The notes: generated by a model not told the origin, from the letters alone. 63,856 nucleotides of DNA, filler included, from Stramenopiles sp. TOSAG23-6 (GCA_900128565.1; 3 parts of 3 records of this genome joined end to end with filler, not necessarily neighbours in it); one strand, 5' to 3'. Shown: positions 1,471 to 63,856, counted from the whole stretch's first letter. Numbers and translations: made by a program.

Positions 1471-3592
1471 ATGAACCAAAGTTCTTATAGTGCTGCTGAT
1501 GATACGAGAGATAAAGTGCGTGTGGTAGTACGTGTCAGACCAGTATTACACTATGAGAGTGATCACATGGTTGTCGTTCGCGCTTCTTCAAGCGGTCAAA
1601 GTGTGAAAGTTTCTTCTACAGCCCCTTCGATGCGTGCTTCTGATAAGGGTGACGTCCGTGCGAATCGCAGAGAGTTTGCTTTTGATCGTTGCTTTGGTGG
1701 TGAATCAACCCAGGAGTACTTTTTCGATGCATGTGGAGTCAAAGATCTCTTACATGCGGGGTTGAATGGATATTGTGCAACAGTGTTTGCTTTTGGTCAG
1801 ACCGGAAGTGGAAAGACGTATACTATGACAGGTCCTCCAGAGTCAGTAGAAGAACCAAAAGTATCGAAAAAAGTATCAAAACTAACCAGTAATAATAGAA
1901 GTATGAATCACACTCCAGTCAAATTTGATGAATATTCTGGTGGTCTTGTCCCTCGTTCTATGAAGTATATTTTTACTTGTATTAATTCAATTCCAAAAAG
2001 TAATATTATCGTGCGCGCGTCGTACTGTGAGATATATAATGAAAATGTATACGACTTGTTGAATTTAACGTTAGAACCTTTGCCAGTACGATTTGATGCT
2101 GATGCGGGTTTCTATGTTCAAGGTCTATTGATAGCGACGTGTGACAACCTCAATGATGTTATGATGGTGATGAATGAAGGTTTAACAAATCGACGAACGG
2201 GATCTCACGAGCTTAATAAAGATACATCCCGATCTCACTCAATATTTACATTATATATAGAGTCGGAAGGAGTAAACTCTACAACAGGCAAGTCTTCGAC
2301 GAGATTTGGAAAATTATCTTTTATAGACTTGGCCGGAAGTGAAAAAGTGAAAAAGACCAAAGTGACTGGCGCAGGATTAATTGAAGCAACGAACGTTAAT
2401 CGTAGCCTCTTTACTTTAGGTAAAATTATATCATTACTGAGTGATCAAGCAGGTGATAGCAAACAAAGCCAAAATCGAAGTGGTTCAGCTAATGTTAAGC
2501 ATATTCCATACCGAGACTCAAAATTAACTAAACTTTTAATGGACTCCCTTGTATGTTTTCATCATGAATTTCAAATTTGTTTTTTTTTCATACGAAATTT
2601 TGTACCTAACAATTTTTTTTTGTAATTTTTTTTTTCACAATACATGTATGTTTTCATAATGAATTTTAATTTGTTTTTCTAGAAAAGTTAGTCCCTAACG
2701 AATTTTGAATTTAACATATTTTTCAACATTACATGGAGGTACTTCAAAAACGCTAATGATAGCATGTGCATCCCCGGGAGATAAATTTATATCCGAAACA
2801 TTATCAACGTTTTATTTCGCCACTCGCGCAAAAAATATTGTAAACAAGCCAATGGTTAAATTAAAACCAAAGGAACAGTTTGTCATTAGCTTACAAACTG
2901 AAGTAGTGGAATTAAGAAAAGAAAATAAATATTTGCGCAAACAATTGTCTATACCAAAACGAGAACGGAATATTCGAGAAGATTTGATGAGTCAAAATAG
3001 TGGTAGTAATAGTAATACAAATGTTTATGATAGGTATGCTGCAGGTTCAGGAGTAAATGCAATTAAATTAACAACACGAAGGAAAAACACAAAATCAAGT
3101 TCGATGCTTTTAGGAGCAAAAAGAGGAAATATAGGAAGTAGAGGAAGTGATTTTTCACGCCTTCGTCAACCTCGAATATATAGTGGGTTTATGCGTCCTA
3201 ATAGGAATACTAAATCAAGGCGTTCACAAAATAGTGAAAACATTTACACTTTTGAAAAAAGCAATAGTAACCCGTCTGTTGACAGTTTTCAGTCCAGTAA
3301 TAGTAATGGCATTTCAAGTAAATATATTCAAAATAGTAGACATAGTAGGACTAGTACAAAGGAATCATATGTACACGACCAAAACCAAACGGAAAATACT
3401 GAAATGAAAAATAAATATGAAGAAGAAGTTCGAAAAATGACTGAAGAGCGAGACGAAGCTCGCAGATTTTGTTGTACTACTTCAGCAAAGTTACACGCGA
3501 TGGAAATCGAAAATGAAAAATTACAAGATAGGCTTCGCCACGTAGAGGCTGTGTTTATAGATTCACAGATACAAGATAGAAATAATATATAA
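1471..3592 (+). CDS. Kinesin, KIF12/kinesin-16-like; exons 1471-2550 and 2735-3592
   Basis: GQTGSGKT P-loop, SRSH and DLAGSE motifs. HIPYRDSKLTKLLMDSL joins GGTSKTLMIACASP in frame once 2551-2734 is removed. Confidence 0.9.
2551..2645 (+). other. Family intron copy (GT..AT), first of a tandem pair in the kinesin
   Basis: GTATGTTTTCATCATGAATT...CATACGAAATTTTGTACCTAAC...CACAATACAT. Confidence 0.85.
2646..2734 (+). other. Family intron copy (GT..AT), second of the tandem pair with no exon in between
   Basis: GTATGTTTTCATAATGAATT...GTCCCTAACG...CATTACAT, followed by GGA GGT (GG of DSLGG). Confidence 0.85.
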
Positions 3593-3759
3593 AAAACATT
3601 GATGACATTATCCATACAGAATGTTGTATAGAGGTTTGACATTTTTCAGAATAATTTTTAGTACAAAACTGCTACAAAACTTCAAATTAGTCAAGATATG
3701 AAAATTGCGAATTGTACGCATTGCAATAGTTAAATTATACTTTATTATATTTACGCGTA

Positions 3760-4407
3760 TTAATTTAAGATAAAGGCAACTATTGATTCAACTTCATTAT
3801 TGTTTTCCAAACTGTTGACTCGTACTGTTATCGACTTTGATATTTTCTCAATAAAGAACTGAAGTTTTCGAGACTCTTCCTGCCCGATATCATTCATTAA
3901 AAACACACCTGTAACTGGAGGGTATTCAGCATATTGTTCTATCTGTTTGAAGACTCTAAGCTTGTTTACAAAACACTGCATCGCATAATTTGGGGTAGGA
4001 GATAATCGATTTAATTCTGACGACGCAAACGTTATTGCAGAACATAGTGTTTCAGATACCATTTCGGATGTAACTTTATCTCTATTTGTAACCACTGAAT
4101 CGGGACTTGAAGGTTTACTAACTGACGACACATTAGTTTTATATTTTCCCCCTCCCGTTAGTGCCACCCGAATAAAATCACGATCAGTCGATTCACACCC
4201 GTAAATAATTGTTGGTTCCACAATATCAACACTCTGATTGACCTCCTTTTTCAGCGCATTCACTGCTTTTACGTTATTACCAATTATGAGATACGAACCT
4301 GGAAGTTTACAGGTTTCCTTTTCAAGTTTTTTTTTTTGGTGTTTATTACGACGTTGTTTACGGTGCTTATGATGACTTGAACGACTTTTCTTATGTGCTT
4401 GATGCAT
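3760..4407 (-). CDS. Hypothetical protein with basic His/Lys-rich N-terminus
   Basis: 215-aa ATG ORF filling the space between flanking genes; no family recognised. Confidence 0.55.
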   Translation of the reverse strand: MHQAHKKSRSSHHKHRKQRRNKHQKKKLEKETCKLPGSYLIIGNNVKAVNALKKEVNQSVDIVEPTIIYGCESTDRDFIRVALTGGGKYKTNVSSVSKPSSPDSVVTNRDKVTSEMVSETLCSAITFASSELNRLSPTPNYAMQCFVNKLRVFKQIEQYAEYPPVTGVFLMNDIGQEESRKLQFFIEKISKSITVRVNSLENNNEVESIVAFILN

Positions 4408-4660
4408 TGTCGCAATATCCCAAGATTTTTCCTAAAGAGCTATCTAAATCTGTAGCTACAAAGTATCTTTCAGAAGAATCTAACTAACCTAGCTAATGAC
4501 CATCATGCATCAAATGTCATTGTGAAACCGTAAAAAAAAAAAATGACTTGCGTGACTTGACTTGTCGTCGTGTCAAACTGTATCTTTGAATCTCTTAGTT
4601 CTGTAATTTGAATCTGAAATCGAAATCTTTGAATATCTTACTGTAATTTCCAAAGGAAGA

Positions 4661-6294
4661 ATGTTGCGAGCATGGAAACGAAACACTGGTAAAAATTATG
4701 TACCGCCTAGAGCTTTCCAAGACCCCCTTTCACTATATACCCATGAAAATAAAGGCGAACCTAGAAAAATCAATGACAAGCAGGTGACCTTATCCTATGG
4801 AGATCGATTGGTTCCAAATTTGATAGCAAGGTTATCTGAGAATGATCCATTAGTAATTAGGCACACAATGTCTATAATCGAAGAGAGAGTAGTAAGAAAT
4901 CCAAAACACGTTTCTATTGCAGTACACTGCGGTCTCATTAATCAATTAAATGATCTTTCTATAAAATTTGCTGTAGCCAAGGATGATAATTCTTGGGACC
5001 CAGCCACTGCAGTATCAGCAGTGACTTGTCTTGGTCATCTATCGAGTACCCGGATGGCTAGAATAAAAATGATGGAGACAACTACCTTATCATGCCTCAG
5101 AAAGTGCATGAATGAAATGTCACCTCGTACTCTACAAACTTTAGCTTTTGACACTTTATTAAAATTGAGTTTTTATCGTGAAATTTGTACCAATTTACTG
5201 CTCGTTAAAAGCACTAAAAAACACGAAGAAAGGACAGGGGAAAGATATATAAATAATGGATTAATGAAGGATCTAGTATCTGTCTGTCCAAAATGGGAGA
5301 AAAAGTATTGCCGAAGAGAACTTGAGGAAATGAACCCTCAAGAAGAGGAAGAAATTGTTTTAAAAGGAAAAGGAAGAATGTGTGTTTCATTTTTTTTCAA
5401 TTTCGAATTTTTTTTTCGTACGAAATTTTGTACCTAACGAAAAACAATTTGAAATATTTTTCCAAAATACATGGCCCGAATAGAATATGAAGCTAAATTA
5501 AAAAAAAGAGAAGATGCCCAGAGGCTTCGAGCTGCAGAGCTTGCAGCATTAACACCACCAGAAATTATTGCGAAACATTTATTGCTTGTTCGAAATCTTT
5601 GTTCTTGTCAAATTGGTATTAAGCAAGCCCAAGATGAAGACGTGCGTTTTAATCCTTTTTTTTTTATTATTTATTTCGATTTAAAAAATTCAAAATGTTT
5701 TTTTACCTAACAAATATTCGTATTTGACATAGTATACCACAATTGTATGTCGTTCAAAAATGTGTTCGTCAATTACAAAATAAACATGGAAGTCTTCGAT
5801 CAGAGGCTACAAGACTTCTTCAAATTTTAACATTAAGCAAAGAAGGTGTTGATGCTGCAATATCAACAGGTCTATCAGATGTTGGGGAGGAGGCCAAATT
5901 AACAACAGGAATTCGCGCTAAAGTTATTTCAGGAGCTAGACCTGGTGCTATCAAAGCTTTAGTAGATTTATTGAAAGACCCTTTATGCATTGTTCGCCGT
6001 GCTGCGACAGGAACATTAATGTCACTTGTAGTGAATATCGAAGGGAAGAAACAATTTTTAAAGATTGAAGGAGTTCAACCACTAGTTTATTCTTTGAACC
6101 ACGAAATTGATTTATGGACAAAACAAAATGCGATACAAATCGTCGCTACGTTGGCGTGTTTGCCTGCCGCACGAATGACGTTGAGGAAGTGGAAAGTTGA
6201 AGAAGCCCTTGAAAATCTTGCAGATAATTCAAATAATACAACCATAGATGAACTTAGTAAAGTGTCACTTGAAGCTCTTCGTTGGGATCCATAA
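4661..6294 (+). CDS. RSPH14: Radial spoke head 14 (RTDR1)-like ARM-repeat protein; exons 4661-5379, 5473-5641, 5749-6294
   Basis: YGDRLVPNLIARL near the N-terminus, ARM repeats (GAIKALVDLLKD, GVQPLVYSL) and a C-terminal W-x-P. Three ORF-track pieces join in frame across two family introns. Confidence 0.7.
5380..5472 (+). other. Family intron (GT..AT) in the RSPH14-like gene
   Basis: AT|GTGTGTTT...TTTCGTACGAAATTTTGTACCTAACG...CCAAAATACAT|G; contains an in-frame stop. Confidence 0.85.
5642..5748 (+). other. Diverged family intron (GT..AT) in the RSPH14-like gene
   Basis: AC|GTGCGTTTT...TTACCTAAC...CACAATTGTAT|GTC restores the frame. An alternative in-frame end at 5730 (GACAT) is possible. Confidence 0.65.
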
Positions 6295-6671: not shown

Positions 6672-9600
6672 ATGGCCGAGTCATCGGATGTGCAAGTGAA
6701 GATGGGTGAAGTTGATGCGTTAAATTTTGGTCCGTCTTGGATGGATAAAGGATTTGCACCACCAGCTTCCCCGAAACTTGCAGGTCGTGTGGTATCCCAA
6801 CGACCTAAATACGTGTACAGTGTTCAGGAATTACGTTCGTTTCACAAACCTTCGCCTACACTTCCTTCAAAAATGATACTTATTGACGGGGTTATTGTTT
6901 CTGAGTCATTAGATCCGGTGTTTCTTACCCCAGAGGACAAAGATAAGTCCCTTAGCTTGTGGAAGCAGATCCCACAGCTGACCAAATCGAATCGTCGGGG
7001 TAGTGTACCTAACAAATCAGATTCTCGGCGTGACACTCGTGGTGTAAATGGTTTCAACTCCTCAAATCAAAGAGGAAAGCCATTTGGAGCTCCTATACAA
7101 AAGACATCTTCTACTATAAAGAGATCGATGGGAATCAATTCTGGTACTTCTGCAGTCAACTCAACAACTTCCAAAAAAGAGTCTGGACTTGCACGCTTCG
7201 AGCGTAATTTGGCTATGCGTTCGTCTCACTCAAGCAACATACCAACATCATCTCTTGCAGTACGCGACAGTAACAGACATAACCGTGGAAATATTATTGG
7301 CAATAATGGTAATGTCTCAGCATTGAAGCGTCATGATAGTTCTGACCACGGTAGTCGTAATGTCTCTAATGATAATGGTGCTTCAGATATGTGGACTCGG
7401 GGAGTGAAAGCACCAGAAAGAAAAGTAAAAAATGAACGTCCTGATAATCTAAAAAGGGATAACTTACGTGGTTTATCTTCGGATTTGTCACGGAACAACT
7501 TATCTGGAGGAGGAATGAAGGACGGTTCTTCTCGGGTATTGTCTTCTTCAAGTTCTCATGCTACTGCTAAGAACCCTAGTGTAGGCCTTGGTATGATGGC
7601 TGCTCAAACTGCTAGATTTGAAGAAATGAAAAAACAAAGACAAAAATCTTCCAGTGTGTCACAACCTTTGTCTGCTACAACTTCAAATGATAGATTAACT
7701 CAAGACATATGGAATGCTATTGGTCGTGGTGGTGAAAGTAGCACTGATAATAGTGGTACTTCAAATCCTAGTCCAAGTAAAATTTTATCTTCCCAGCAAC
7801 TCCAGATGCAGCAAATGCAAATTCGTAACGAGAAGCAACAACAACAAGAACAACAAAAGTTGCAACAACATCAGCAACAATGGTCGGCTAGTCAGCAGCA
7901 AAAAAATACACAACAACCCCAACAACCTCAATATAGTGAGCAATTTGCAGCACATGCCAGCGTCACAGCAACAGCTGCAGCTACGCCTGCACAAAAAACA
8001 CAAGCTAAAATTCAACAGTCCTCTGCATTATGGTGGTATTTAGACCCTCAAGGTAGAGAACAGGGTCCATTTAAGAATATGGATATGCGTGCCTGTACGT
8101 TTTATTTTAATGATTGAACTGCAAGTTATTTTTTTATACGAACTTTTTTTACCTAACAAAGAATTTTGAATTTTACATATTCTCTTCAATACATGGCACC
8201 AACAGGGTTTTTTTAAAAGAAATCTACCGATTCGTCTGGGAAATGGAAGCGATGGTGCAACCTTTAGTGAACTAGGTGCGATTTTTCCAAATTCAGCGGA
8301 AGCATTTTCCGTGAAGCCTCTTATTCCAAAACACGTTGAATCCCCGCCTAAATCTGCTATTTCTCCTACTCAGTTGACGAATCAACAACAGCATCAGTTA
8401 CAAGTACAACACATGATACGCCGTATGCAAGCTATACAATTACAAATGCAACAGATTGCTGCGCAATCTACCCAACATGGCACTACCCAAGCGAGAGAAA
8501 CGATGATGCAATTGCAGACACAATTGTTGCACCAACGATCTCAAATTCAAGCTCATATGCTGCAAATGTCGAATCAACAACAACAACAACAACAACAACA
8601 ACAGAGTCAACAGCATAATCAAGTTCAACAAGCTCAACTACATGCTCAGCGCCAAGCTCAATTACGTTTACAACAACAACAAGCTCAACAACAAGCTCAA
8701 CAACAAGCTCAAATTAAAGCTCAGCAACAAGCTCAAATTAAAGCTCAACAACAAGCTCAAATTAAAGCTCAACAACAAGCTCAAATTAAAGCTCAACAGC
8801 TAGCTCAAATTAAAGCTCAACAGCTAGCTCAAATTAAAGCTCAACAACAAGCTCAACAGCTAGCTCAAATCAAAGCTCAACAACAAGCTCAAATAAAAGC
8901 TCAACAACAAGCTCAACTCAAAGCTCAACAGCAACACCTCAAGCCTTGGGAAAATCCTAATAGCACATCAAAGTCTAATCCCTCGACTTCTACTGCGAAG
9001 AATTTGTCACAACATTCGCCGCGTCAGGCTAAGTCAACTGTGTTAGCTTCTTCTGATTCGTTCTTGGAGAACCAACAAAGAATTCAAATACAAAATCAGC
9101 AAAACGTTTTGAAAGACCAGAGTAGTAAGCGTTCGTCAATGTTATTGCCAAAGACTCAAGAGCAACAAAGCGAATTACTTCTTATTCAACGAGAACAAGA
9201 GAAAGAATTTCAAAAACAACAGCAAAAGCGTGCTTTAGAGAAGGAAAAAATGCAAAGGTTACAGGCGCTTCAGACTGTAAATGCTTCCGCTTGGGGTAAA
9301 AAAAGTAAAAATGTGTCTTCCATTAGTACGGGGAATGGAAAGTCTTTAAAAGAGATTCAGAAAGAAGAACAGGCAAGAGTGGCAGCACAAGAAGCAGCTG
9401 ATAAGCAAGCCGCTGCAGCTGGTGCTCGTGCCAAGGCTGGGCGGACCATGGCAGATCTCGTCGCCGGTAGTAGGAATAACGCAGCTGGTGCACAATGGGT
9501 CCGTGAACAGAGTTTATTGGCTGAATCTGAGGCTATTGCCACTGCAAAGAAACTTTCGTTGTCGGAGATACAGGCAAAGGAACAACTTGAGGTTGAGTTT

Positions 9601-10587: not shown

Positions 10588-13012
10588 TCACATTTCTGTA
10601 GTTCTTCTTGCAGCATCAGCATCGGTGTTTGAGTGAACTTCCTCAATTAAAATCTTTAATTCGCATAATTCTATTTGTAATCTTGATATTTTTTGTCTTT
10701 CTAGCTGTAGGGAGTGTTGCTTTGGATACATATTTCGTGATAAATTCATTTTCTGCATTTGTGCCTTTTGGATTGCTTCTTGGATTGATGCCAGTTCTTT
10801 GACAATTTCTTCCTCTTCTTTACTGTCTATATTATTTGAAAAATTAGAGCCCTTTATCACTTTCTGATGCAATTTTTTATTTGACCTAATTTCATTTTCA
10901 AGAGATTCTGTCAACACTAAAACTTTTTTCTTTGCTGTGTCTAAATGTTTAAATAGTCTAGCTTTATTTTTGTCGTATTCAGTACGTTTTTCTTTAACCA
11001 ACTGAATTCGTTGAATATATTTCTCTCTATCATTTTGAGTGAATTTAGTCCGAGACACTAACCAATTCTCAAGCGCAGATGTCTTTGCCTGCAAAAATTC
11101 TAGGGACGCTGTGCCGGCATTATAGATCTCACTACTAAATATAGTTCCTTTCCTGCCATTCTTGTATTTCTGTAAACGTTCTTTTGAAGTTGTGTTAAGC
11201 CTTCGAATGTTTGATGCATCTTGAACAGTCTTTACATTTATATCTCTAGTAAATGTTTTCACGTCATTTAGTGCATCGTTCACTTCATCAATTTCTACAA
11301 GTGCATTTGAGTAATCATTTTCGTAACATTGCTTACAAAAATGTAAATGCTTTTCAGCTGCAAGATGTATTTTGGAAAAATATTTCAAAAAAAAAACTTA
11401 AATTTGTTAGGTACACAATTTCGTACGAAAACAAATTTAGAATTTGAAAAAAATTAAAACATACATGTTGTTCCTCTATGAAATTAAGCTTTTTTTGAGC
11501 TTCAGAAATTTCTCTACTATGTATTGCACTTATTTCTTCAATCCAACTCCTTTGTTGAAGTATCATTTTATCGCTTAAAATTACTAATTTATCTTTACTA
11601 TTTCTAATATTGGCTAATTCACGAAACAGCGAGGAGTGCGAATCAATGGTATCCATGACTTCAATTTGTTCATCTAAATTTAAAATATCTGATTTTAGGC
11701 GACAAATTTCTAAATGTTGACGTTCTATTCTTTCCCGACAAAATTCCAGTAATTTTCGGGTCTCTTTAAAAGTACACCCATTTGCACTATTTGCAACAAC
11801 TTGCCCACCTCTGTTCTTGTAAAGTGCTTGTGACATTGATATAAAGTTCTCAAGACTCATAGTTTGAATGATGTTACCTTGTGTATTCTTTTGTGAAAGC
11901 ATATATTTTCTCAAATCTTTCAAGTTTAAATCTTCTTTTTGAGTACTTTTGTTCAATGTTTTAAGGATATTTTTAATTTCTGTCGCCTCCAGAAGACTAT
12001 CAAAGTTTATATCATATTGTGAAAATAAATGATGTAGTTCTTTAACTGTCATATGAAAATGACCTTGGCTTTGTTCGTTTAATACACGGTTAATGATTCC
12101 TAGGAAAAATTCTAAAGATATTTCATTACGTTTCTGCTGAAAATTTATAGTATTCCCAAGACCTAAACTTGCAATTTCGTATACCCTCCTTTGCATGCTT
12201 GTCGTCATCTCAAATGTAGAATGATTACGTTTACATAGTGTAAAAACTTTTAAAAGATTATCGGGAGATACAAACAATTCTTTTTGCATTTCAGTGGGTT
12301 GTATATCTTTGCTATCAACCATATTTTTTCTGACATTTGAAGTCATCTGAGCAATTTTATTGAATGATTGACTAATCTCTCTTCGCCAAATATCCGTAAT
12401 ATAATCTAGGTCTTGACTAGTGTCAATTATATTTTCGCTGTTCAATGAATTATACTCAGGTAAAGTTTGCGTTGGACTGACTACAGAAAATAAGATATGA
12501 CCAGATGCTAGTTTTTGTGGAACATTTTTAGTGGTTTTGGCCATTGATTTAACATCAATCCTTTTTAATGTATTCGATGTCGCAAATGCTGCCATTGCTT
12601 TTAAAGAACCATCACTTGTTCCATGTACTGCACCAACTGAAGCACTACTAAAATCATCTTCACCGACGAGGAATTCGTTGGGGTATTTAACATTTGTTTT
12701 TAGGTCAACAAGCTCAAAGGTTTTCGTGTTTTGTTTAAATTTTACTTTGATCTCACAGTAAAGATGAGATGCGTATTTTACAATGAACTTATATTTTGTT
12801 GAGTCAATCAATTTGTATAGTTTTACTTCCCACATCCCATTTGGGTTTGTATCATCTAAAACTTTAGCCCGTGAACCATCAGCAGATATTATTTCTAGTG
12901 CCAATTTTGCTTTATTACGTATTTTGTAAGGGCAATTAGGAAAACCAAACGCTACTGCCGCTTTGTAAACATCCGAACTTTTTGTTGGATGGAACCACTT
13001 TTTAGGCTCCAT
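10588..13012 (-). CDS. EF-hand-like/coiled-coil protein; exons 13012-11465 and 11364-10588
   Basis: ELHHLFSQYDINFDSLLEATEIKNIL is EF-hand-like and the C-terminal half is coiled-coil. Two ORFs join in phase 0 (IEEQH|LAAEK). Confidence 0.65.
11365..11464 (-). other. Family intron (GT..AT)
   Basis: Minus strand: CAT|GTATGTTTT...TTTCGTACGAAATTGTGTACCTAAC...CCAAAATACAT|CTT. Confidence 0.85.
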
Positions 13013-14440: not shown

Positions 14441-16016
14441 ATGATGATATTCTTTTTGCTTTTGACTCTGTTTCATAACACCCAAGCAATAAATGTGACA
14501 GCCATTCAATGGTCACCGCATTGGAGGTGTTTTGTTATGTTTAAAGACACATGTGGTCCTCAAGCGCGTCGGAACTTGGAGGCGATGATGTCTGTGTATG
14601 AGCCTGACTACATCAACCTCGGGATGTGGTCCAGCAATTTCGCTCTTCCAGAGGATGTATCTGCCAATTATCATGCTGTGTCCGTAGAGTGTGGAGCTGG
14701 TGATAGACTTACCCTTCTTATCAAAACGGATTATGAAATTATCAGTCATTATTATAAGGACGAAAAAAAGGTAGAAGGAGTTTTTGATGATAATAATCAA
14801 GGCTGCATGATGTCTAACTCAAGGGGAACAGATAGAGCATATATCATTCTCAATGTTCAACACAAAGTCACCAAACTGACACGTACAGTTGCTGCATTTC
14901 ACTTTCCTCATCCAACAGGAGCTGCAGCTGGTTCAAGTGGCCATGGAATTGAAGATCAAGCAAATATCTACAATATGATGGGAAAGCTTAGGGAAAAAAT
15001 CGATAATGCTCTTAGTGATAGTCAGCTGGATGAAAAAGAACTTGTCATTCTTGGAGACTTCAACGCCGATATCAGCCATCACTTCGCTGCTGACGGGGAA
15101 AAAAAACTGAATAATGGAACACTTAGGATAGTGAACCGCCCAGAAGACTGTACGGATGTAAAGTTGTCGTCACTAGCCAGGCTAGTCGCAGACGAAGAAA
15201 TGTACCTTTTCATTATGAATTTCATTTTTTTTCATACCTAATTTTGTACCTAACAACGTTTTTTGACCAATTTCACATTTCTATGTTTTCTCACAATACA
15301 TGGCGTGTAGTGATGTCATCATGGATGCATATTTTGATGACGCATGTGATTTATCATCAAAAAGTCCAACGGACTCATGTGCATCACGAACAAAGCGAGC
15401 TTTTTGTGGGTCAGAAAGTGTTCAAACAAAAACAAGAGGTCAGCCTAAGGCAAAAAATACATTTGACGAAGAAGGTATTATTCTAACTAACGATGAAATT
15501 GTGAGTACCTTGACCGGAGAAGATGAACCGAAATATGTCGCAACAGAAGCTTACGATACATGTTGCGCTGATAATATGCGTGGAGAATATGGGGGTAAAG
15601 AAATGGGTCCTAACAATTTTATTCTCGAAGGCGAAGAAACATCAAAAGATTTTTCGGCAGCATTTTCGTTTGATCGTGCCTTTGTCGTTAGTGAAGACCT
15701 TGCCTTTTCACACAATGCAAGAACATTAAAACCTTATAATGATGAAAGGTTTTTTTCCAAACTTGGACAAACACAGAATGATGTACTGTTGAGAATTATG
15801 GTGGGTGCTGCGCACCTGCCCATTGTTTTAACAGTAAACGAAGATGTGAGAGCAGAAGTGGAAGCAGAAGTTGAAGAAGCGGAAGCAGAAGAGGAAGAAG
15901 AGGAAGAAGAAGAGGAAGAAGANGAAGCAGAAGAGGAAGAAGAGGAAGCAGAAGAGGAAGAAGATGCTTTTGGATTCTTGGAAATGATGGAAGTAAGAAA
16001 ACTTCGCCACGCATAA
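14441..16016 (+). CDS. Secreted endonuclease/exonuclease/phosphatase (EEP)-fold protein with acidic tail; exons 14441-15201 and 15302-16016
   Basis: Signal peptide; VAAFHFPH, LVILGDFNAD, FDRAFV and AHLPIV motifs; poly-Glu tail. Two ORFs join across a family intron. Confidence 0.65.
15202..15301 (+). other. Family intron (GT..AT)
   Basis: AT|GTACCTTTTCATTATGAAT...TTTTGTACCTAAC...CACAATACAT|G. Confidence 0.85.
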
Positions 16017-18626: not shown

Positions 18627-20270
18627 ATGAATGTCGTTCCATTTTTTTATAAAAATGATACAGGTGAAGAATTTGGACCATTTCACCCAGCTCAACTAGA
18701 TGCGTGGCTCTCTCAGGGGCATTTACAGCAATCACTTTTAGTTCGAGCTGCTGATGAACCTGAAGGTGCATTCGTTTCAATCAGCGCACGTGGTGAAGAT
18801 CCGTTCAGAATTTGTGCACTCAAGGCACAATCTTTGACTTCATCAGATATGACTGAATCCAAAGAACGTAGTAGTAGATATGCAAGCTCTGACTTGGAAG
18901 ATGTCGCTTTGAATGACTGTTTTTATGACGATGAAGACGACGCTGATGTTGTCGCTCAGACAGCTCCTCTGTCGAATAAAGATAAAACTGACAAGAGACG
19001 CATAGTAACTAGTGATGATTTATTATTAGCTAACCAACATACAAATAAAAAGGAAAAGGAAAAAAATCCTGAAAAAAATCTTTCAGTGGATGCACTTGAA
19101 GGTAGCGTTCTTAACGATGTTCGTTTATGGGTAACAAAACAAGGATGGCAAAATTTAGATACGGTTGACGAAATAATCAAGAGAGTATTTAATGCGACAA
19201 AGTATCCTCTTGAAGGTTCTCCTTTAGGTATGGGCCTTCGTGATGAACGACCTTTATCGGATAATAGTGACGATAGTAAAGGAGGGGGGAGAAATGTGTA
19301 TGGAGTTGGTGCTGCTCCAAAAAAGGGTGAGGTAGCTGCAGCAGCGGCTGCACTCTCCCTCGTAGCAATAGAAGAAGCAAAAGAAGCAGAAAAAATAAAG
19401 TTATGGGAACATCCAGATGTTCAATTATGGATGAAGCAAAATTCTATCGAAACTTTGAGTGCACAAACGATAGGCTTTTGTCGGACATATGTTTGTTTTC
19501 ATCATCAATTTTTTTTATCTAAATATTTTTTGATTGACAATTTTGTTGTACCTAACGAATTTTTGACTACAAAAAATATTTTTTTAACAATACATGAAGA
19601 CATTGAACAATTTCTCTCTTCACCTCCATCGCCACCGACACAACTTATGCCTAATTTATATATTGGTCATGAAGGAAATGCACGTGATATAGAATGGCTA
19701 ACTAAAAATGAAATTAGTGGTATAATCAATTTAGCACCAGATGATATCTCGATATCAGTACATTTATATGACTCAGTGAATTCCCCTGGAATTTTATGTA
19801 CAACTGGTAATGTTTTAAATGATATAGATATTTCAAAAGAATCAAATGAAAAATACCAAAAAAATGTTTCAAATATTGAAGTTGCTTCAGGAGGTCTTGA
19901 ATATCTGTCAATTTCATTGTCCAATGATGAAGATTTTGATATTTTACCTTATTTTAAATATGCACACAATTTTTTAGATAGACATTTACATAGAGGTCAT
20001 AGTGTGTTATTATATTGTTACGATGGAATATCTGTTACACCAACTGTAGCAATGTCATACATAATGTTAAAGTTACATAGTAATGTTTTGAGTGTTGCTG
20101 CTTACGCATGGCGAAAGAGAAAGGTAATTGAACCGAATTTGTCACAATTAGCAGCATTAATACGATATGAAAAAATTTTATCGGAAAAGCGCTTAGGACA
20201 AAACATGAAAAGTCCTAATCTAAATAGCAAGAGTAATATAGAAAAAGATACTAGTAATTCTTCTATATAG
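18627..20270 (+). CDS. GYF-like plus dual-specificity-phosphatase-like protein; exons 18627-19490 and 19596-20270
   Basis: N-terminal FYKNDTGEEFGPF...LDAWLSQGHL; DSP fold PTQLMPNLYIG...VLLYCYDGISVTPTVAMSYIM...IEPN. Confidence 0.75.
   Translation: MNVVPFFYKNDTGEEFGPFHPAQLDAWLSQGHLQQSLLVRAADEPEGAFVSISARGEDPFRICALKAQSLTSSDMTESKERSSRYASSDLEDVALNDCFYDDEDDADVVAQTAPLSNKDKTDKRRIVTSDDLLLANQHTNKKEKEKNPEKNLSVDALEGSVLNDVRLWVTKQGWQNLDTVDEIIKRVFNATKYPLEGSPLGMGLRDERPLSDNSDDSKGGGRNVYGVGAAPKKGEVAAAAAALSLVAIEEAKEAEKIKLWEHPDVQLWMKQNSIETLSAQTIGFCRTYVCFHHQFFLSKYFLIDNFVVPNEFLTTKNIFLTIHEDIEQFLSSPPSPPTQLMPNLYIGHEGNARDIEWLTKNEISGIINLAPDDISISVHLYDSVNSPGILCTTGNVLNDIDISKESNEKYQKNVSNIEVASGGLEYLSISLSNDEDFDILPYFKYAHNFLDRHLHRGHSVLLYCYDGISVTPTVAMSYIMLKLHSNVLSVAAYAWRKRKVIEPNLSQLAALIRYEKILSEKRLGQNMKSPNLNSKSNIEKDTSNSSI
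19491..19595 (+). other. Family intron (GT..AT), 105 nt, in frame and without a stop codon
   Basis: AT|GTTTGTTTTCATCATCAATT...TTGTACCTAACG...AACAATACAT|GAA; read through in the ORF track as a Phe-rich insert. Confidence 0.8.
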
Positions 20271-43590: not shown

Positions 43591-43676
43591 AAAATATTTT
43601 TTTTTGTAAAATTTGTTAGGTACAAAATTTCGTACGAAAAAAAAACTAAATTCGAAATTCAAAACATAAAACATAC
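43591..43676 (-). other. Family intron, 3' end truncated by the contig edge
   Basis: Minus strand: CAT|GTATGTTTT...TTTCGTACGAAATTTTGTACCTAAC. Confidence 0.85.
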
Positions 43677-49628: not shown

Positions 49629-50758
49629 TCACAACTCAATAATAGACCTGACAGGAGTTCCATTAAATGAAATATCATAAATCTTGGAAAATAGGGGAAA
49701 TTCATGAGTTGATTTAGTACGCTTCAACACTTCGTATACTTCTTTCGCAGTAAGAGTGCCTTGGAGTTTTTGCCCATTCAACAACTCTCTCTCAATATCT
49801 TCCCAACATTTTTTACCATTCGATGCCGCAAATGCTTCGGCACATTTTCTATTCCGACCACCATAACATGTAGTTATTAGATCAGCTACACCACAACTTT
49901 CAAAAAATGTACTATCAGAGACTCCACTGTAAAATTTCTGAGCAAATTTTTTCATTTCCAATAATCCAATTCTCATGTATTTTTGTAAAATATGTTTTTT
50001 TTTAGTAAAAAAAAATTGTTAGGTACAAAATATCGTACGAAAAAAGAAATAAAATTTATGATGGAAACGTACATAATTGCGGCTTTCGTATTTCCACCCA
50101 ACTTTAAGCCGTCAATAAAACCTGCACCAATTGCAACAATGTTTTTCAAAGCGCCACAAAGCTCCACTCCAGCAACATCATTCGTTAAATCAACGCGGAA
50201 GTAATCTGTATGGAAAAGAGCTTTGAAGATTTCTCCATTTTGAGGAATCGAACTCCCAATTGTTGTTTCACAGAATTGTTCTTTTGCAACTTCTTTAGCA
50301 ACATTTGCACCCATTAGTACACTAACATTTATATCAAGTCCTTTGCGGATTAAATCGGATATCAGAACAAGGCCTTTATCATCAAAATCAATTCCTTTGA
50401 TTAGAGAAATTGCTTTAGCGTCAGCCTTCATATGTTCTTTAATTGTAGGGATGAGTCGAGGTATAAACTGATGAGGAACCACAAATATCAAAATTGAGCA
50501 ATCACGCACAGCCTCACCAAGATCTGTTACAGCGACAACATTTGAAGGAAGTTTCACTCCTGGTAAATACTTTACATTTTCATGAGTGGTGTTGATAATT
50601 TCGGAAAGATTCTCACCGTTGACTTTTTCCTCATAAACGTACATTTTCACTGTTTCATCAAACGTTGGTAATTGCTTAGCATTCTTGCCAACTATTCGAG
50701 CTATTGCAGATCCCCAATTGCCAGAACCGACAATGCAAATTTTCTCTGGTGTGCTCAT
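49629..50758 (-). CDS. GPD1: NAD-dependent glycerol-3-phosphate dehydrogenase; exons 50758-50073 and 49974-49629
   Basis: IVGSGNWGSAIA, GALKNIVA, spliced TKAAIMRIGLLEM and ESCGVADLITTCYGGRN. Confidence 0.95.
49975..50072 (-). other. Family intron (GT..AT) in GPD1
   Basis: Minus strand: AT|GTACGTTTCCATCAT...TTTCGTACGATATTTTGTACCTAAC...AAAAATACAT|G AGA. Confidence 0.9.
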
Positions 50759-52141: not shown

Positions 52142-52955
52142 CTACAAAACTCGGAGATTCAATACTTCAACTGCTCCAAAGTAGAAAGCTTTGATCTCAG
52201 CATGTCCAATTCCGTCAACTTCAAAACTCCATTCCCATTTTTTTCGTCCATCTTTCAGTTCTTTCATTGAAATATTATCGCCACCATCATCGTTTTCATC
52301 TCTCTCGAGGATTGAGATGTTGGATCTGAGTTCCGATAACTTTTTTTTAGCAGCTGCATTGGCCTTGTAAAGAGTGCTGTATGCTACGTCAGAAAAATAT
52401 TGTGTGAAATATGTAAAAAATAAATAAAGAGTAAATAGTTATGATTTCATAAGAGTTTCTTTGGGGTTGTAGCAGTGAAACAACTAAAAAATACAAACCT
52501 TCAATATTAGCTGAGTCCGCCTCCACGTCGTATTGATCTTTGTGTATTTTTCCAGGGTAGTCGTTGGTTCCGTATTCTATGACCTCACCTCGATGGTGCC
52601 ACTTGATTATATACACTGATTTGTTAGATTCCATCTTTTGTTTTTTATTTTGGTCAGTCTTTGACGAAGTAACAGCCTTGCGTTTCGTCGTTTTAGTTTG
52701 AGAAGATCGTTTTTCTTCCACTAAAGATGATTCAGCTATTTTCGTTACTGTTGAAGAGTCGGTTTCGTCATCAAACAATCCAGTTCGAGGCCTAATTCTT
52801 GTTCGCATTTCTTTCTTATACAGCTGTTCCTCACTTCCATCGACCAAATATGAAACTAATGGAACACTTCGATAGTTCTTTTTTACAACTGCAGCATACC
52901 ACTTTCCCTCATAGAGAACTTCCACCTTTGCACCTTTACGATATACTTTGGTCAT
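52142..52955 (-). CDS. Tudor/Agenet-like N-terminal domain protein; exons 52955-52499 and 52383-52142
   Basis: KGAKVEVLYEGKWYAAVV...VSYLVDGSEEQL. A second exon (YSTLYKANAAAKKK...LRVL*) joins in frame through a GT-AG intron. Confidence 0.6.
52384..52498 (-). other. Canonical GT-AG intron, not a family member
   Basis: Minus strand: AAG|GTTTGT...CTGACGTAG|CA; lacks the palindrome, TACCTAAC and AATACA. Confidence 0.6.
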
Positions 52956-53307: not shown

Positions 53308-56258
<2,951 letters not shown>

Positions 56259-56528: not shown

Positions 56529-58550
56529 ATGCTCTCTCGCTTTGTTCAAATATCTAAGAATTTTCGGCAGGGTGTGCGACAATGTTCTTCTTCTTGCAAA
56601 GGTACATGGTCAACAATAAATGCCTTGCAAATTTCGGAGCTTGCGTCATTTAAAAGTGCTTCCCACGTGTTTGTTGATGAAGACAACTGTAATGAACTCC
56701 CAAGTTCAGCGACTCGTGTTTCATATCTGAATAAGCTTACGGGTGATGATGCTACGACTGTTCTTGAAAATGCAGATTGTACTGTCACCTATATTTTTCA
56801 GGACGATAAGGGTATACTTGTTGACAAATATGGCGTCTGTGTTGAGGCTGTCGAAGATATTTTTGCTAAAGGTGGAAATACGACATATTTGCATTATTCA
56901 AAGTTGGAAACCAATCCAAAACGTCGTCTTTTTGTTCTTGTGGGGGAATCTGCAAAAGCTGATGCGCCCGCACTCCGTAGTGCGACAAATGCTGCCATAT
57001 CATGTCTTCGGAAGATTGCATCTGTCGAAAATATTATCATGGAACTCCCTAATTTAGATCGTTTGCCAATGTTACACAAGGCTGCTGCTGCTGGTTCAGC
57101 TGGAAATGAAAATGTCGCATTTGACGGTGATGTGGTGAGTTTAATTACTCGAAGTGCGTGTCTATCTAATTATTCATTTTCGCGTTTTAAAAATGAATCA
57201 ACAGAGCCTTTGTTGAAAAACATTGTATTTGCTAGTCAAGCACCTTCGTCTACTATAAGTTCAACTGACCCAAGTACAAGTGAAATTCCACCAGATTCTC
57301 CTCCATCTGTGGAAGATGTTGCAAAAGTACATATGTCTATTTTAGCACCTGCACGTGTAGAAGTTAGTACCGTGCTGGCAGATGCGACAATTTTTGCTCG
57401 TGATTTAGGTAATTTAAGAGCAGATATTGCCAATCCTGCGTTTATTGAAAGTCTTGCTAGACAAGTTGGAGAAACTCATGGTGATAACTTGAGTGTAAAA
57501 GTCTTACAACAACCACAACTTCATGAGTTAGGAATGAATCTTCTTGCTGCTGTTGGACAAGGTGCTGCTGGTGGTCCTGGATGTGGTCGAGATAGCTCAG
57601 CGCCGCGTTTAATTACATTGGAATATTTCGGTGATCCTGAAAATACTACGAATGATTTCGCTTTAGTAGGTAAAGGTGTCACATTTGACACTGGAGGACT
57701 GAACTTAAAACCGACGGGTTCAATTGAGGGAATGCATTTAGATATGTGTGGTGCTGCATCTGTACTTGCTGCAATTGATGCAATTGCAAAGCTAAAAGTA
57801 CCTCGTAATGTTATCGCAGTTTTAGCTGTTGCTGAGAATGCTATTGATGCAGCAAGCTTTTACCCAATGCAAATTGTGAAAGGGTTAGACGGACGCTCAG
57901 TTGAAGTTGGAAATACAGACGCAGAAGGGAGACTTTGTCTTGCTGATGCATGTTCGTTATTCTCTTACATTTCATTTTTTTGTTTTGTAAAAACACGTTT
58001 GTATCTAACATTTTTTTTTTAAACAAAACAAAAACAAAAATAATATATTTTTCACAATACAGTAACATATACTCAGAGAGAGTATAATCCAAAACGAATC
58101 ATTGATATGGCTACTTTAACAGGTGCGTGTGTGGTAGCATTAGGTGAATATGCAGCTGGGTTGTTTACAAATGATAATGTAACACACAATGGTGTTGAAC
58201 CTAAATTTGGTAAGAATAGTGATATGACAACTGACCTTACAATTGCAGGTTCTCGTATATTTGAGAGAGTTCATAAATTACCTATATTACCAGAGCATAG
58301 AGATGAAATTTTAGAAAAAGGAGAAGCCAACCACGCTGACTTGAAAAGTATTGGAGATGGTCGCCCATATGGTGGTTCATGTACCGCAGCAGCATATCTA
58401 GAATCTTATATTGATGATGGGAGACAGTGGGCGCATATTGATATAGCAGGACCAGCAATGTATAGCAAGGCACGTGGTGAGATGCCTGCTGGAGCTACTG
58501 GCTTTGGTGCTGCCCTTCTTGTTAGAACTATTCTGGGACATAAAGCATAA
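56529..58550 (+). CDS. M17 leucyl aminopeptidase, probably mitochondrion-targeted; exons 56529-57951 and 58063-58550
   Basis: VGKGVTFDTGGLNLK, DMCGAA, NTDAEGRLCLADAL and IDMATLTGA; presequence-like N-terminus. Confidence 0.93.
57952..58062 (+). other. Family intron ending in canonical AG (GT..AG)
   Basis: GCA T|GTTCGTT...TTTGTATCTAAC...CACAATACAG|TA ACA gives ADALTY. Confidence 0.88.
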
Positions 58551-58835: not shown

Positions 58836-60920
58836 ATGGCACTACATATTATAATGACCTTCATGCTTGCTTGTTTTATGTGTATTTCAAGAGTTGAGGG
58901 TGCTGACAATGCTCTTACACCTCTTTACTTAAGAAGTATTCGACTTGCTGCTTCACTAGACCCAGGGTTTGCAGATAAATACGGTGAACATTTACCAGAG
59001 GGAATGCGACGAAAAACTCTTCATGAAATTCTTTTTAACTCTGATGTTTTAACAGAATTAGAGAAGCGCGAACATCTAGAATCAATCTTTTCGGATGGAG
59101 GAGAAGAGAAAGTACGTGAAGCACTCAAGAATAAAGTCAATTTACAAGAAGTTGTTGTTGGGGACGCTGTTGAATGTCCGAATCATACAATTTGTAGAGG
59201 TATTCAAAATGATGGTGATAGTTGTTGGTTATCTTCAGCACTTCAACTGACATTGCACATTGATCAGTTAAATGTTTTTTTAACTGATGGAGGTAATGCC
59301 GGTAATGAAGAAAAACAACATGATGTTGGAGAAGCGAAAGCAGCGCTGGCTGAGCAGGTGTCGAACTCTGCGGCCACTTCGAAGGAGCCACCGCATTTCG
59401 GGCTGAGCTACAGGAAGCTGCAAGACGTAATGAAGCACTCGCCTTTTGTGGCTGTTGTGTCAGGGCCGACTTTCAATGCGGCTGTTGTGCCAGGGCCGAC
59501 CCTCAATGCAGCAGCCGTGGAGTTTGCAGCCCCGAAAGGAATCAACCTGGCTGATTTCAAAAGAACTTATGAAGCACATAATGGCTATGCCCTACCCAAA
59601 ACAGTAATTGCTCAAGTAAGACAAAGGATATTTGGAGAAGGATATATAGGACAGCAAGAATCCGATGCATTCTTTACCAGGATGTGGGAGCAAAATATCG
59701 ACCACTATCCTTCGGATTTCGTTTCTGAAGTGGGTGATGAGATACGCTCATTTTATATTGAGACACCCGAGCAAGATTTAACATGTACGTTTTTAAAATT
59801 GAATTTATTAATTTTTTTTCATACGAAATTCCGTACCTAACTATTTTTTTTCATTTAAAAAAAAATCACAATACATGTGAGCAGCTTCCGAGCAAAAACG
59901 TGGTGGAGTGTGTCAAACTTGAAAATCGAATGTTCAAGATTTCTCTTCGTGCAAAAACTCGTTCAAAAACAATTGTAGTTCCTTGGAATGCTGGGGATGG
60001 TGACTCTGTTTCGTTGAGTGCTGCTCACCAAGACTTTTGTGATCATCCAGAAAATTACGTTTCTTCGGTAATTGCCTATGTATGTTTTAATTTTTTTTCA
60101 AAATCGTTTTTTTTTCGTACGAAATTTTTTACCTAACGATTTTTTTTGAAATATTTTTCCAAAACACATGATGAATTTCTTCATTCTGGATTGAACTTGG
60201 AAAACCCAGTGATTATGACTAATGTGGAAGATCAAGAAGAAGTTCATATTAGTCCTCGTTTGTTTTATTTTTTTTTACCAATTTCGACTTTTTTTTTTTT
60301 TTTCAAAAAGCAATTTCATACCTAACGAATTTTTTTTTGTAAAATTCGTGTTTTTTTCACAATACATCATTAACTTGTAGTTTTGCTCGCTATCTTTTAT
60401 CCGCTCGTAGAAGAGGTAATGCAAAGTTTGATCTTACATTTGATGGTGATTTACACGTATGTTTTAATTTTTTTCAATTTCGAATTTATTTTTCGTACGA
60501 AATTTTGTACCTAACGATTATTTTTTGAAATATTTTTCCAAAATACACACTGCTTCTTTTCAAGTAGGGAGTTTCTTCAGAATTGATGGGGAAAAACACG
60601 AAGGGCTTGGAATATACCATGTACGTTTTTTTTCATCATGAATTTTTTACCTACATTTTCATAAGAAATTTCGTACCTAACATTTTTTTTTACGATTTCG
60701 TTTTTTTTTTTTCACAATACATGTGAAAGGGTTTGTGCAGTTTATGGCTGGTAAATCTATTGGCAGTGGTGGGTTTTCGAGTGGTCATTATGTATCTGCT
60801 GTTTTGTTTGATGGTAAATGGATTTTATTTAATGACGAATCTGTTAAATATTTAACTCTTGAAGATGCAATGAAAAGAATGAGTGAGGCTACAGTTCTTT
60901 ATAGTGAAAGGGTGAATTAA
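58836..60920 (+). CDS. Ubiquitin-specific protease (C19)-like protein with signal peptide; exons 58836-59784, 59877-60079, 60170-60257, 60368-60456, 60549-60620, 60723-60920 (532 aa)
   Basis: Cys box GIQNDGDSCWLSSALQ, QQES, and His box SGHYVSAV...WILFNDESV. All six exons stay in frame when the five family introns are removed. Confidence 0.8.
59785..59876 (+). other. Family intron (GT..AT), USP intron 1
   Basis: ACAT|GTACGT...CGTACCTAAC...CACAATACAT|GT. Confidence 0.85.
60080..60169 (+). other. Family intron (GT..AT), USP intron 2
   Basis: TAT|GTATGT...TTTCGTACGAAATTTTTTACCTAACG...CCAAAACACAT|GAT. Confidence 0.85.
60258..60367 (+). other. Family intron (GT..AT), USP intron 3
   Basis: CTC|GTTTGT...CATACCTAACG...CACAATACAT|CA. 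Confidence 0.8.
60457..60548 (+). other. Family intron (GT..AC), USP intron 4
   Basis: CAC|GTATGT...TTTCGTACGAAATTTTGTACCTAACG...CCAAAATACAC|ACT. Confidence 0.85.
60621..60722 (+). other. Family intron (GT..AT), USP intron 5
   Basis: CAT|GTACGT...CATCATGAAT...CGTACCTAAC...CACAATACAT|GTG. Confidence 0.85.
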
Positions 60921-61989: not shown

Positions 61990-62300
61990 TGTTATATGCG
62001 TTGTTGTTGCTTTTGCGCTGTTTCTTGTATAGTAGTATACTTTTACTTTTATAGTAAAGTTGTTTGAAAGAATCTCAACTGCTTTAGTTCCTCGTTGGTC
62101 ATTTTTGCTACCATTAAGTGGACAAAACTGTTTTCACCATCACACGTCGGTTTCAATTCGTAGTTTTACTATCTTTGCACTTTAAATTGAGTAAATTCAG
62201 ATTTAGATTCTTTTATAGATTCGACAATGATACGTTCAGTCCTTCCTGTCGTATATAAATAACTAACTTTGTTGAGACAATTTCAAAAATACAATCAACT

Positions 62301-63791
62301 ATGCCAAATTCATTGGCACATCCATCGTGGGGATATTGGTGTGGCCAACTATTTGTATCTAAAGACAATGAAGTACTTCCTGGTAAAGTTGAAATGTTAG
62401 CAGACCGCAAATTTCTCAATTCCGACGGCATAGAGTATTCTTATAGACTTGTTGATGAACGTGGAACAAAGACGTTTATTTCCTCAATGGAGAAGCTTTT
62501 AAAGAACATTAAGTTCACATTTCGGGCGACTATCCTTGCAAACAGTGCTTCAGACGATGAGAATGATGAAAATGCTGTCGCAGTCTCATGCGACAATATT
62601 TCTGTCAGCCAAACACGTCGTGAAGGGAAAAAAAACACTATTATGAACCTACATATTGATGTGGGTGCAGCGTTATATGTTGGCTGGAAGCTTTGTCCCG
62701 ATGCTATCATCATTTTCTCTAGCCTTCATGCATATACTTCTATAGATGCTATGACTAATATATCTGTAAGTAAAACGAGACGAACAAAGTGTTTGCGAGA
62801 CGTTTATGCTAATATAAAGCCTGCTAATAGGAAACGAGGGTCTACCCCTAAAATGAGTGAAGAACTTGACTCATACTACAGTTCAAACAACATGACATGT
62901 GTAAATGGTAACTCATACAAGCGTAATCTCGCGAATTTACCGATAGAAATGATACGAACAATTTTAAGTTATCTAACTGCGAAGAATATTTCCTATTTGT
63001 CAGTTGTAAACAAATACACATTCTTCTCTTTTGCTAGTGATCCATTTACACCGGGTTTAGGATTATCACTATTTCCTCATCAAAAAAATTCTCTTGGATG
63101 GATGGAAGCACGTGAACGAGGTGATGGTATGCTGAACAATTATACATCAAAATCTGTGTCAAAAAAGGGAAATAAAAATGGTACTAATTGTGTAGATACG
63201 CTTGAGTTGATCCCTGGAATGACGGTGAACTTTCGAAGAAAGGAATACAATGCTGTAAATGATCCTAACCCTAAACCTAATAAAACTAATAAAACTAATA
63301 GTGATAATGAAACAATTAGGGTCAGGGTAGCTAAATATACTTGGAGGGAAGGCGATCTAGTGCAACGGTATGAAAATGGATGGAAAATTAGGGTAGTAAA
63401 GACAGTTAGAAATAGAAAAAATAGTATTAACCCTAACCCTAACCCAAATAGAAAAAATAGTATTTGTAAAACGATAATTTATACTGCAAATGAATGTGAT
63501 ATATTTCGTCAAGAATACGAAGAGAAAATTGTTCCTGATCATAATAACAATAGTACAAATAAGCCGTTGTCTTATTTTGTAAATGTAAAAACAGGTTTAT
63601 GTACAAAGAATGTACCACCATCAGCTCTTCTGAGAAGACACCCATCACGTGTCATAACAGAAACACACCCACATTGTCCAATGATGCAACAATTAGATGC
63701 AACATATTGTGATGAAGATGTTACAATATTATGGTTGTGGAATCATCATACTAATCCTAGTACACCTAGAAGTAAAAGCCAATGTAAAAAT
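62301..63791 (+). CDS. F-box plus SNF2-type helicase gene, exon 1 (3' truncated; missing from the ORF track)
   Basis: Manual translation from ATG 62301 is open to the window end: LANLPIEMIRTILSYLTAKNISYLSVVNKY (F-box), then PGLGLSLFPHQKNSLGWMEARE (SNF2 Q-motif region). Confidence 0.7.
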
Positions 63792-63856
63792 GCACGTTTT
63801 CATTTTTTTTCAAATTCGATTTTTTTTTCGTACGAAATTTTGTACCTAACGATTTT
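63792..63856 (+). other. Family intron with GC donor, truncated at the window end
   Basis: AAT|GCACGTTTT...TTTCGTACGAAATTTTGTACCTAACG. Confidence 0.8.

Follow-up and report, generated by a model that had tools for sequence, protein, structure and literature searches.

The window analysed here, 63,856 nucleotides (nt) of Stramenopiles sp. TOSAG23-6 (GCA_900128565.1), very probably harbours a real family of mobile, U2-like introns that begin with GT and end in AT. All intron counts below refer to this one 64-kb window of three joined scaffold parts. Reading frames and homologous proteins make removal of these elements by RNA splicing highly likely, and protein-level evidence supports a GT..AH register with a non-AG 3' end. 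Nearly every intron in the window would then be a copy of one mobile element, which implies a splicing machinery that has relaxed the 3' AG rule, near-universal in U2 introns. The explanation favoured as a whole, in which an introner family with GT-AY ends is spliced by the U2 machinery and takes its last two bases from a duplicated insertion target, is judged likely. A first-pass annotation had called GT-AT introns the dominant class of a genome; dominance holds within the window, the wider wording being an extrapolation.

Splice motifs and evidence for removal

Elements were located by a motif scan, and a profile built from the 18 complete copies recovered these and three more that are cut by scaffold gaps or the window end, 21 in all within the window (E<=1.3e-4; Table 1); number, donors, 3' ends and lengths agree with the first-pass annotation. 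Complete elements are AT-rich and 89-140 nt long. The 20 visible donors (GTATGT 7, GTACGT 5, GTTTGT 2, GTTCGT 2, and one each of GTGTGT, GTGCGT, GTACCT and GCACGT) all start with GT or GC; position +5 is G in 19 of them and position +6 is T in every one, and the 19 visible 3' ends read CAT (15), CAC (2), TAT (1) or CAG (1), i.e. 16 AT, two AC and one AG. The AG that a U2-type YAG end calls for is thus present at 1/19 ends and YAY at 18/19. Both A(-2) and Y(-3) are kept in 19/19; the earlier statement that A(-2) is invariant stands, and its companion, that position -1 is free, is not supported, this position being a pyrimidine at 18/19 ends and never A.

Equally uniform is the branch region. 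The motif TACCTAAC occurs 19 times in the window against 1.08 expected (0/100 shuffles reach 19), 18 times inside elements; the three remaining elements carry CCCTAAC, CCTGAC or TCTAAC instead, and a YTRAC branch motif lies upstream of the 3' end in 21/21. The occurrence at 7006, coding sequence without the other motifs, was rejected as a family member. Branch adenosine and intron end are 33-54 nt apart, close to the 30-55 nt first estimated, and AG is depleted between them (4 observed, 11.4 expected). A palindromic family core, TTTCGTACGAAA, has 12 matches in the window against 0.25 expected, ten of them within elements. It also occurs in divergent promoters, at 53106-53166 upstream of MCM6 (a weak profile match, E=0.023) and at 1326-1337 upstream of the kinesin gene; these promoter matches may be remnants of degenerated copies, or else mark a protein-binding site that the element brings along.

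Excision from the donor G through the last base of ATACAN yields a kinesin of 645 amino acids (aa), MCM6 of 871 aa, GPD1 of 343 aa, an aminopeptidase of 636 aa, a GIGYF-like protein of 1205 aa and a USP of 532 aa, whose C-terminal UCH box is reached only via five correct junctions. Where an element interrupts a Pfam domain, the match picks up again at the adjoining profile position (kinesin 293/293, MCM P-loop 177/174, M17 178/176), and the conserved junction motifs highlighted by the first-pass annotation, namely kinesin DSL/GG, the GYF junction and those listed for MCM6 and GPD1 in Table 1, are indeed restored. In the kinesin gene, removal of both elements gives DSL/GG and removal of one leaves a stop; the pair would be lost either by recursive splicing or through use of the first donor with the branch site and acceptor of the second element. 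Retention truncates the protein in 17/18 cases, the exception being the stop-free 105-nt element at 19491-19595, which could stay as a 35-residue insert.

Use of the first downstream AG at the 16 non-AG junctions would, as had been claimed, damage the products: it shifts the frame in 13 and removes 3, 9 or 21 nt in the others, the 3-nt loss dropping a GPD1 Arg kept in at least 101 of 119 homologs and the 21-nt loss dropping the MCM6 GRYD found in the eight commonest motif classes (at least 68 of 120 homologs). All in-frame pairings of donor (+-12) and acceptor (+-24) offsets were also scored at 5 of the 17 junctions, against hidden Markov models built from subsets of the homologs. The proposed GT..AH register ranks first at four of them (among 252, 229, 224 and 218 variants), and the best GY..AG variant scores 10.5, 13.4, 36.0, 9.1 and 5.9 bits lower at the five.

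Several observations pull the other way. At MCM6 intron 3, in a poorly conserved region, the proposed register comes fifth of 162, 2.5 bits under the best. Transcript-derived proteins crossing a junction are absent from the best 120 matches each of MCM6 exon 2 and GPD1 exon 1 and from the best 150 of kinesin exon 1. Furthermore, window GPD1 and kinesin are nearly identical, at nearly all aligned positions and gaps aside, to EukProt GSMAST32.ASY1.ANO1.155.1 and.1258.1, and both of these public models place other, AG-type boundaries: the GPD1 model is without the junction Arg, as predicted for next-AG use, and the kinesin model runs ten codons into the first element. Since the public GSMAST32 models also excise several open, conserved coding stretches as false introns, they provide no evidence on splicing either way. 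Sequencing runs sharing words with 46200-56100 were likewise not used as evidence (they are eight of the nine listed, from four studies; word shares are 0.96-0.97 in two DNA runs, possibly the source of the assembly, 0.34-0.59 in three seawater DNA runs and 0.06-0.21 in three RNA runs).

That the elements are not spliced at all, but are gene-inactivating insertions, segments excised from DNA or assembly artefacts, is scarcely credible. Such a reading can point to the absence of junction-crossing proteins from the matches above, to an assembly with gaps, single Ns and at least one likely homopolymer frameshift near 17470, and to AT-bounded inverted ends that recall the internal eliminated sequences of ciliates. 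Three copies sit, nevertheless, in MCM6, where the flanking exons are stop-free and 75-87% identical to homologs; DNA excision gives no reason for copies to be strictly sense or for the branch motif to be strand-specific; and sixteen independent AT ends in a shared motif cannot be random base errors.

Junction register, spliceosome type and acceptor choice

At 11/17 junctions the exon and the intron finish on the same two bases, and therefore the AT..AC, TG..CA and GT..AT registers give identical mRNA there, an ambiguity that counts against the GT..AT assignment. So does the weakness of the protein evidence against a 1-nt shift, which amounts to an aminopeptidase Leu, presumably conserved, becoming Val. 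An A-C pair is known, in addition, to replace the terminal G-G pair (10.1101/212811). A true register of AT..AC or TG..CA with a non-GT donor is all the same very unlikely. Shifting by 2 nt creates DSHGG in the kinesin, a motif found in 0/150 homologs against 93/150 with DSLGG (32 are without a motif match), and only 14/19 sites would begin with AT. The 1-nt shift has against it the canonical donor hexamer (GTAYGT is a textbook donor). Only the GT register, moreover, makes an ordinary GT-AG intron of the member at 57952-58062.

The GT-AT ends themselves could suggest a transformed minor (U12-type) spliceosome tolerant of such ends, as in Physarum. GT-AT introns of this type are on record, seven in human plus mouse (PMC1557818) and 17% of the non-canonical U12 introns of Physarum (10.1101/2020.10.12.336362); the branch site of the window family is unusually conserved, with TACCTAAC resembling TCCTTAAC, and one donor reads GTACCT. 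Mammalian and Physarum U12 GT-AT introns thus share ends and a strong branch motif with the elements, but they are rare and combine an RTATCCTT donor with a close branch site, neither of which is seen here (PMC1557818; 10.1101/2020.10.12.336362): RTATCCTT occurs in 0/20 donors, in which G(+5) (19/20) and T(+6) (all) prevail, and the branch-to-end distance is 33-54 nt against 10-12 nt in Physarum (10.1101/2020.10.12.336362). The motif TACCTAAC also differs from TTCCTTRAC, the 33-54 nt span overlaps the limit of about 45 nt, and the GTTTGT donor is common to the ordinary GT-AG intron of the window and two family members. Removal by a U12-type machine is accordingly improbable, and a U2 rather than a transformed U12 machine can be assumed with considerable confidence.

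Structure-guided, non-spliceosomal excision as in euglenid nonconventional introns has a single attraction, namely that in 8/10 folded elements the minimum-energy structure brings the two junctions into pairing. It is highly implausible given that donor and branch motifs are strictly kept and that only 1/10 folds beats its shuffles (z below -2; range -3.1 to +0.3), a result on which a stable RNA hairpin was also rejected. The same strong donor and branch consensus, together with the single fold at z below -2, separates the family from the hairpin type of euglenids and Amoebophrya.

The mechanism proposed for U2 splicing of the family is as follows. A non-autonomous element of about 90 nt, GTAYGT...TACCTAAC...ATAC, would insert into coding exons, mainly at (C)AT^G, bringing its own U2-type donor and branch site. 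Its last two intron bases would be the duplicated target dinucleotide (AT, rarely AC), so that splicing from GT to AY would leave the original mRNA unchanged. Pairing in the yeast P complex joins G(-1) to G(+1) and A(-2) to the branch A, and Y(-3) touches Prp8 Gln1594 (10.1101/212811). The major spliceosome could accept the AY end because this end retains Y(-3) and A(-2), which are read by Prp8 and the branch adenosine; replacement would be confined to the G(+1)-G(-1) contact, and we infer from the conserved termini that G-U or G-C is tolerated in its place.

How the acceptor is found is a more doubtful matter. The first-pass annotation had it defined by branch site and distance, a rule that proves insufficient because the distance spans 33-54 nt and a YAY at least 10 nt past the branch is skipped in 18/18 complete introns (a CAY in 10). 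A fixed branch-to-acceptor distance is ruled out by that span, and scanning for the first YAY by those skipped sites. Selection among YAY decoys might instead depend on the extended ATACAY motif and/or on 6 bp of complementarity between one junction and the other, and a U2AF1 or step-2 factor altered as in Fritillaria would presumably take part; this account is offered tentatively. Rfam at gathering scores returns no match and no small nuclear RNA for bases 1-57900.

Origin of the family

Pairwise identity is 84-95% among five complete copies, which lie in four unrelated genes (best pairs 89-95%), and the other copies are about 64-86% identical to their best partner. Similarity extends outside the splice motifs, 17/18 copies having a partner at z>4 relative to mononucleotide shuffles, which overstate z for T runs. 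By their sequences the elements are one introner-like family, in which both young and old members are represented. Wherever a host open reading frame (ORF) can be assigned (20 elements), the element is genic and in sense orientation.

The surrounding exons are far from random. The exon before the donor ends in AT at 14/19 sites and in AC at 2/19 (AT background 0.094; p=3e-11), carries C at -3 in 9/19 (p=0.0015) and a purine at -1 in 0/19; the triplet before the donor is YAY in 10/19 and NAY in 16/19, and the next exon begins with G in 13/18 (p=6e-6). The insertion target thus appears to be roughly palindromic, C-AT-G, and the kinesin k2 element, which starts right after the terminal AT of k1, fits insertion at an AT^G site.

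Because the elements form one introner-like family and the preceding exon also ends in AT, the AT acceptor is most likely a 2-bp target-site duplication (TSD), and such an origin of the terminal dinucleotide is, on these sequences, held to be fairly probable. A duplication claim needs site-specific matches, a shared dinucleotide alone being either TSD or target preference (PMC9860276). Among the 11 matching junctions one is non-AT (AC...AC, USP intron 4), and with just this one site-specific match the duplication is no more than likely. The six junctions at which exon and intron ends disagree comprise three silent codon differences, one intron's own AG and two non-silent cases.

These two non-silent sites, in the kinesin and in USP intron 3, speak against the duplication, the kinesin exon ending in TT (AT would give His at a conserved Leu) being a misfit to a 2-bp AT duplication. 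Further difficulties are the lack of a clear intergenic copy (P 0.078 under uniform insertion, 0.008 under a model with purging of antisense copies in genes), a terminal inverted repeat, GTAT/ATAC, of only 4 bp, or 6 bp with the flanking AT, and the absence of a transposase among the window ORFs scanned. Among the six complete GTAC-donor copies, one shows the terminal repeat compensated.

The same splicing could have arisen without any duplication, the terminal AT being the element's own, either through reverse splicing of lariats into mRNA at AT^G, as proposed for fungal introner-like elements, or through a TG...CA element lodged between A and T. The exclusively genic, sense placement of the 20 assignable copies and the lack of a clear intergenic one favour this alternative, the TG...CA version requires no change at the kinesin and GYF sites, and the ambiguity between TSD and target preference applies to it as well (PMC9860276). 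It is nonetheless rather unlikely. The AC...AC site would require two parallel changes, purines are absent at -1 in all 19 exon ends, and the target looks palindromic, with C at -3 and G after. We know of no spliceosomal contact that favours AT at the exon end, where U1 favours AG.

Further members were sought with a 25-nt core motif, which has 0 matches in metagenome contigs and 0 in genome contigs. Matches to three-part patterns (7 viral, 10 metagenome) were rejected as chance, none being meaningful against the family profile and all looking like ordinary coding DNA; a single AT-rich pattern match was rejected as lying within a long ORF on a gene-dense, bacterial-looking contig. In the window itself, 21807-21865 was discarded as a candidate antisense or intergenic copy, since, lying next to a scaffold gap, it has no gene against which it could be oriented. 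The 100-nt scaffold gaps at 21707-21806 and 43491-43590 (with the TTAATTAATTAA linker) both fall inside family elements, and therefore the repeat family fragments this assembly. Insertions look clustered: the long genes at 23002-31323 (ankyrin/WW/IQ, 2773 aa) and 32383-39198 on the minus strand (CHD-type helicase with bromodomain and a weak LysM match, 2271 aa) hold no element in 15 kb, against five in the 2-kb USP gene.

Known systems, host and other features of the window

Dominant AT 3' ends have already been published for the tunicate Fritillaria, the closest known case; what differs here is the GT donor and the supergroup. The introner family and the AT before the donor are additions to the first-pass annotation, which gave no origin. 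No 3' end is more frequent in Fritillaria than 3'AT, which accounts for 44% of introns in F. pellucida and 34% in F. borealis; AG/AC (18%) and AG/AT (16%) lead the classes of the latter, and U2AF is duplicated in Fritillaria (PMC13326754). Both systems share transposon derivation and a YAY that closes the intron and frequently also precedes the donor; splicing in Fritillaria is by the U2 spliceosome (PMC13326754, PMC11282704). The window family matches this case in its 3' end, yet falls outside it: its donors are GT/GC in 20/20 and AG in 0/20, against AG in the main F. borealis classes (a GT/AT class is possible in F. pellucida), and it combines a yeast-like branch site with a change of G(-1) only, whereas Fritillaria ends are very diverse (PMC13326754). 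Since the host is a stramenopile, the origin would be independent.

Introners of Micromonas, Aureococcus and Chrysochromulina are likewise short and multi-copy, with their own 5' site and a 3' site from target duplication, but the acceptor they co-opted is AG (PMC9860276, PMC12130899, PMC11282704); a 2025 survey, built from annotated introns, has 3' AG and AC only in the part available. The terms 'MAST' and 'stramenopil' are absent from the main text of two introner surveys as far as it is represented here (PMC9860276, PMC12130899), whose per-genome tables could bear on novelty. In Amoebophrya, also a marine protist, non-canonical, repeated introns likewise form the majority, with non-canonical introners at over 60% and no dominant dinucleotide pair; the hairpin-type ends and 3-5 nt duplications there differ from the one fixed motif set of the window family (PMC7789003). 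ISL2EU DNA transposons share the 2-bp AT TSD, but have an A/AT/T target and GG termini and are confined to animals in the survey, against C-AT-G and GT termini here (PMC4482050). A literature search that left most subscription journals outside found no report of dominant GT-AT introns in stramenopiles or MAST-3, and MAST-related papers, searched by terms in the text available, hold no statement on splice sites.

Two window proteins point to a MAST-3-like marine stramenopile as host: the label GSMAST32, which we take to mean MAST-3, belongs to the near-identical public proteins described above, and among named MCM6 homologs diatoms, oomycetes and further stramenopiles predominate, with about 80-84% identity. 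The window is eukaryotic in composition (36% GC), gene-dense and about 88% genic across 29 gene spans drawn by hand. Exact look-up of 19 window ORFs gave one match, an intronless Arf; no transcript-derived copy of a junction-spanning protein came from the exact look-ups.

A second, unrelated lineage with YAY ends that keeps the usual GT donor together with a strong branch site isolates a single changed contact. Why introns end in AG could then be tested by setting its U2AF1, Prp8, Prp18/Slu7 and U2/U6 against the counterparts in relatives that use AG. The broadest scenario, to which we lean only slightly, is that in a free-living marine stramenopile one introner invasion supplied nearly all introns and reset the acceptor of the major spliceosome from YAG to YAY genome-wide, with donor and branch site canonical, independently of tunicates, leaving the G(+1)-G(-1) pair dispensable and entailing a co-evolved change in U2AF1, Prp8 or U2 that would be traceable by sequence. 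A genome-wide reset would, if true, be a natural single-variable experiment on that pair. The family further illustrates how a transposon may become a harmless intron without AG in its target. On the practical side, gene finders built on GT-AG would mis-model such a genome, the junctions of both public models checked being wrong, and introner surveys built on annotated introns would miss the family. MAST-3 assemblies have been described as having few complete protein matches, 37-53% BUSCO, apparent dynein pseudogenes and few hydrolases (PMC5778133), remarks that need a second look if they concern this lineage.

Table 1. Family elements, and the one apparent ordinary intron, in the window
Feature	Position	Strand	Remarks
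Intron k1 (GT..AT), kinesin	2551..2645	+	first of a head-to-tail pair with no exon between
Intron k2 (GT..AT), kinesin	2646..2734	+	begins directly after the terminal AT of k1
Intron (GT..AT), ARM-repeat gene	5380..5472	+	young subfamily
Most diverged member, ends TAT	5642..5748	+	3' end set by frame only modulo 3
Intron (GT..AT), GIGYF-like gene	8095..8194	+	in the GYF domain
Intron (GT..AT), gene without Pfam family	11365..11464	-	young subfamily
Family intron, AT end	15202..15301	+	GTACCT donor
Intron (GT..AT), GYF/dual-specificity phosphatase gene	19491..19595	+	105 nt, in frame, stop-free
3' half of element	21807..21865	+	branch site to AT; 5' half lost in scaffold gap
5' part of element, MORN-repeat gene	43591..43676	-	3' end lost in scaffold gap
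Intron (GT..AT), GPD1	49975..50072	-	junction KAAIM/RIG
Only apparent non-family intron, GT-AG	52384..52498	-	branch-like CTGAC abuts AG; inferred from reading-frame continuity
MCM6 intron 1 (GT..AT)	54391..54481	+	young subfamily
MCM6 intron 2 (GT..AC)	54998..55137	+	junction ANPIY/GRYD
MCM6 intron 3 (GT..AT)	55830..55933	+	donor GTAC mirrored by GTAC before the terminal AT
AG-ending member (canonical GT-AG), M17 leucine aminopeptidase	57952..58062	+	anchors the family register
USP intron 1 (GT..AT)	59785..59876	+	
USP intron 2 (GT..AT)	60080..60169	+	young subfamily
USP intron 3 (GT..AT)	60258..60367	+	exon ends TC
USP intron 4 (GT..AC)	60457..60548	+	exon end also AC; sole site-specific match
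USP intron 5 (GT..AT)	60621..60722	+	UCH C-terminal box in last exon
5' part of young-subfamily element	63792..63856	+	GC donor; runs past window end

The single ordinary intron, already recognised as such in the first-pass annotation, has its CTGAC 5 nt from the end, against 33-54 nt in the family, and its faint likeness to the family tail is not significant (z 1.9). Leads for its gene in the ESM Atlas all lie below 0.9 (Tudor/Agenet). The other ten GT-AG-like pattern matches fall within open ORFs or intergenic sequence and are left out of the intron count; unrecognised short introns in untranslated regions (UTRs) are possible. One AT-rich segment, 21944-22010 on the plus strand, follows the orphan 3' half-element and has a GTGTGT start, TATGAC and a T-rich TAG end; it is a possible second GT-AG intron, or simply 3' UTR.

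Elsewhere in the window, a T run at 17465-17480 in a nucleotide-sugar transporter gene shifts the frame by one base, probably through a homopolymer assembly error. Divergent promoter regions at 17060-17160, 53090-53260 and 47300-47350 are marked by short TTCGAC/TCGAG repeats and GA runs.

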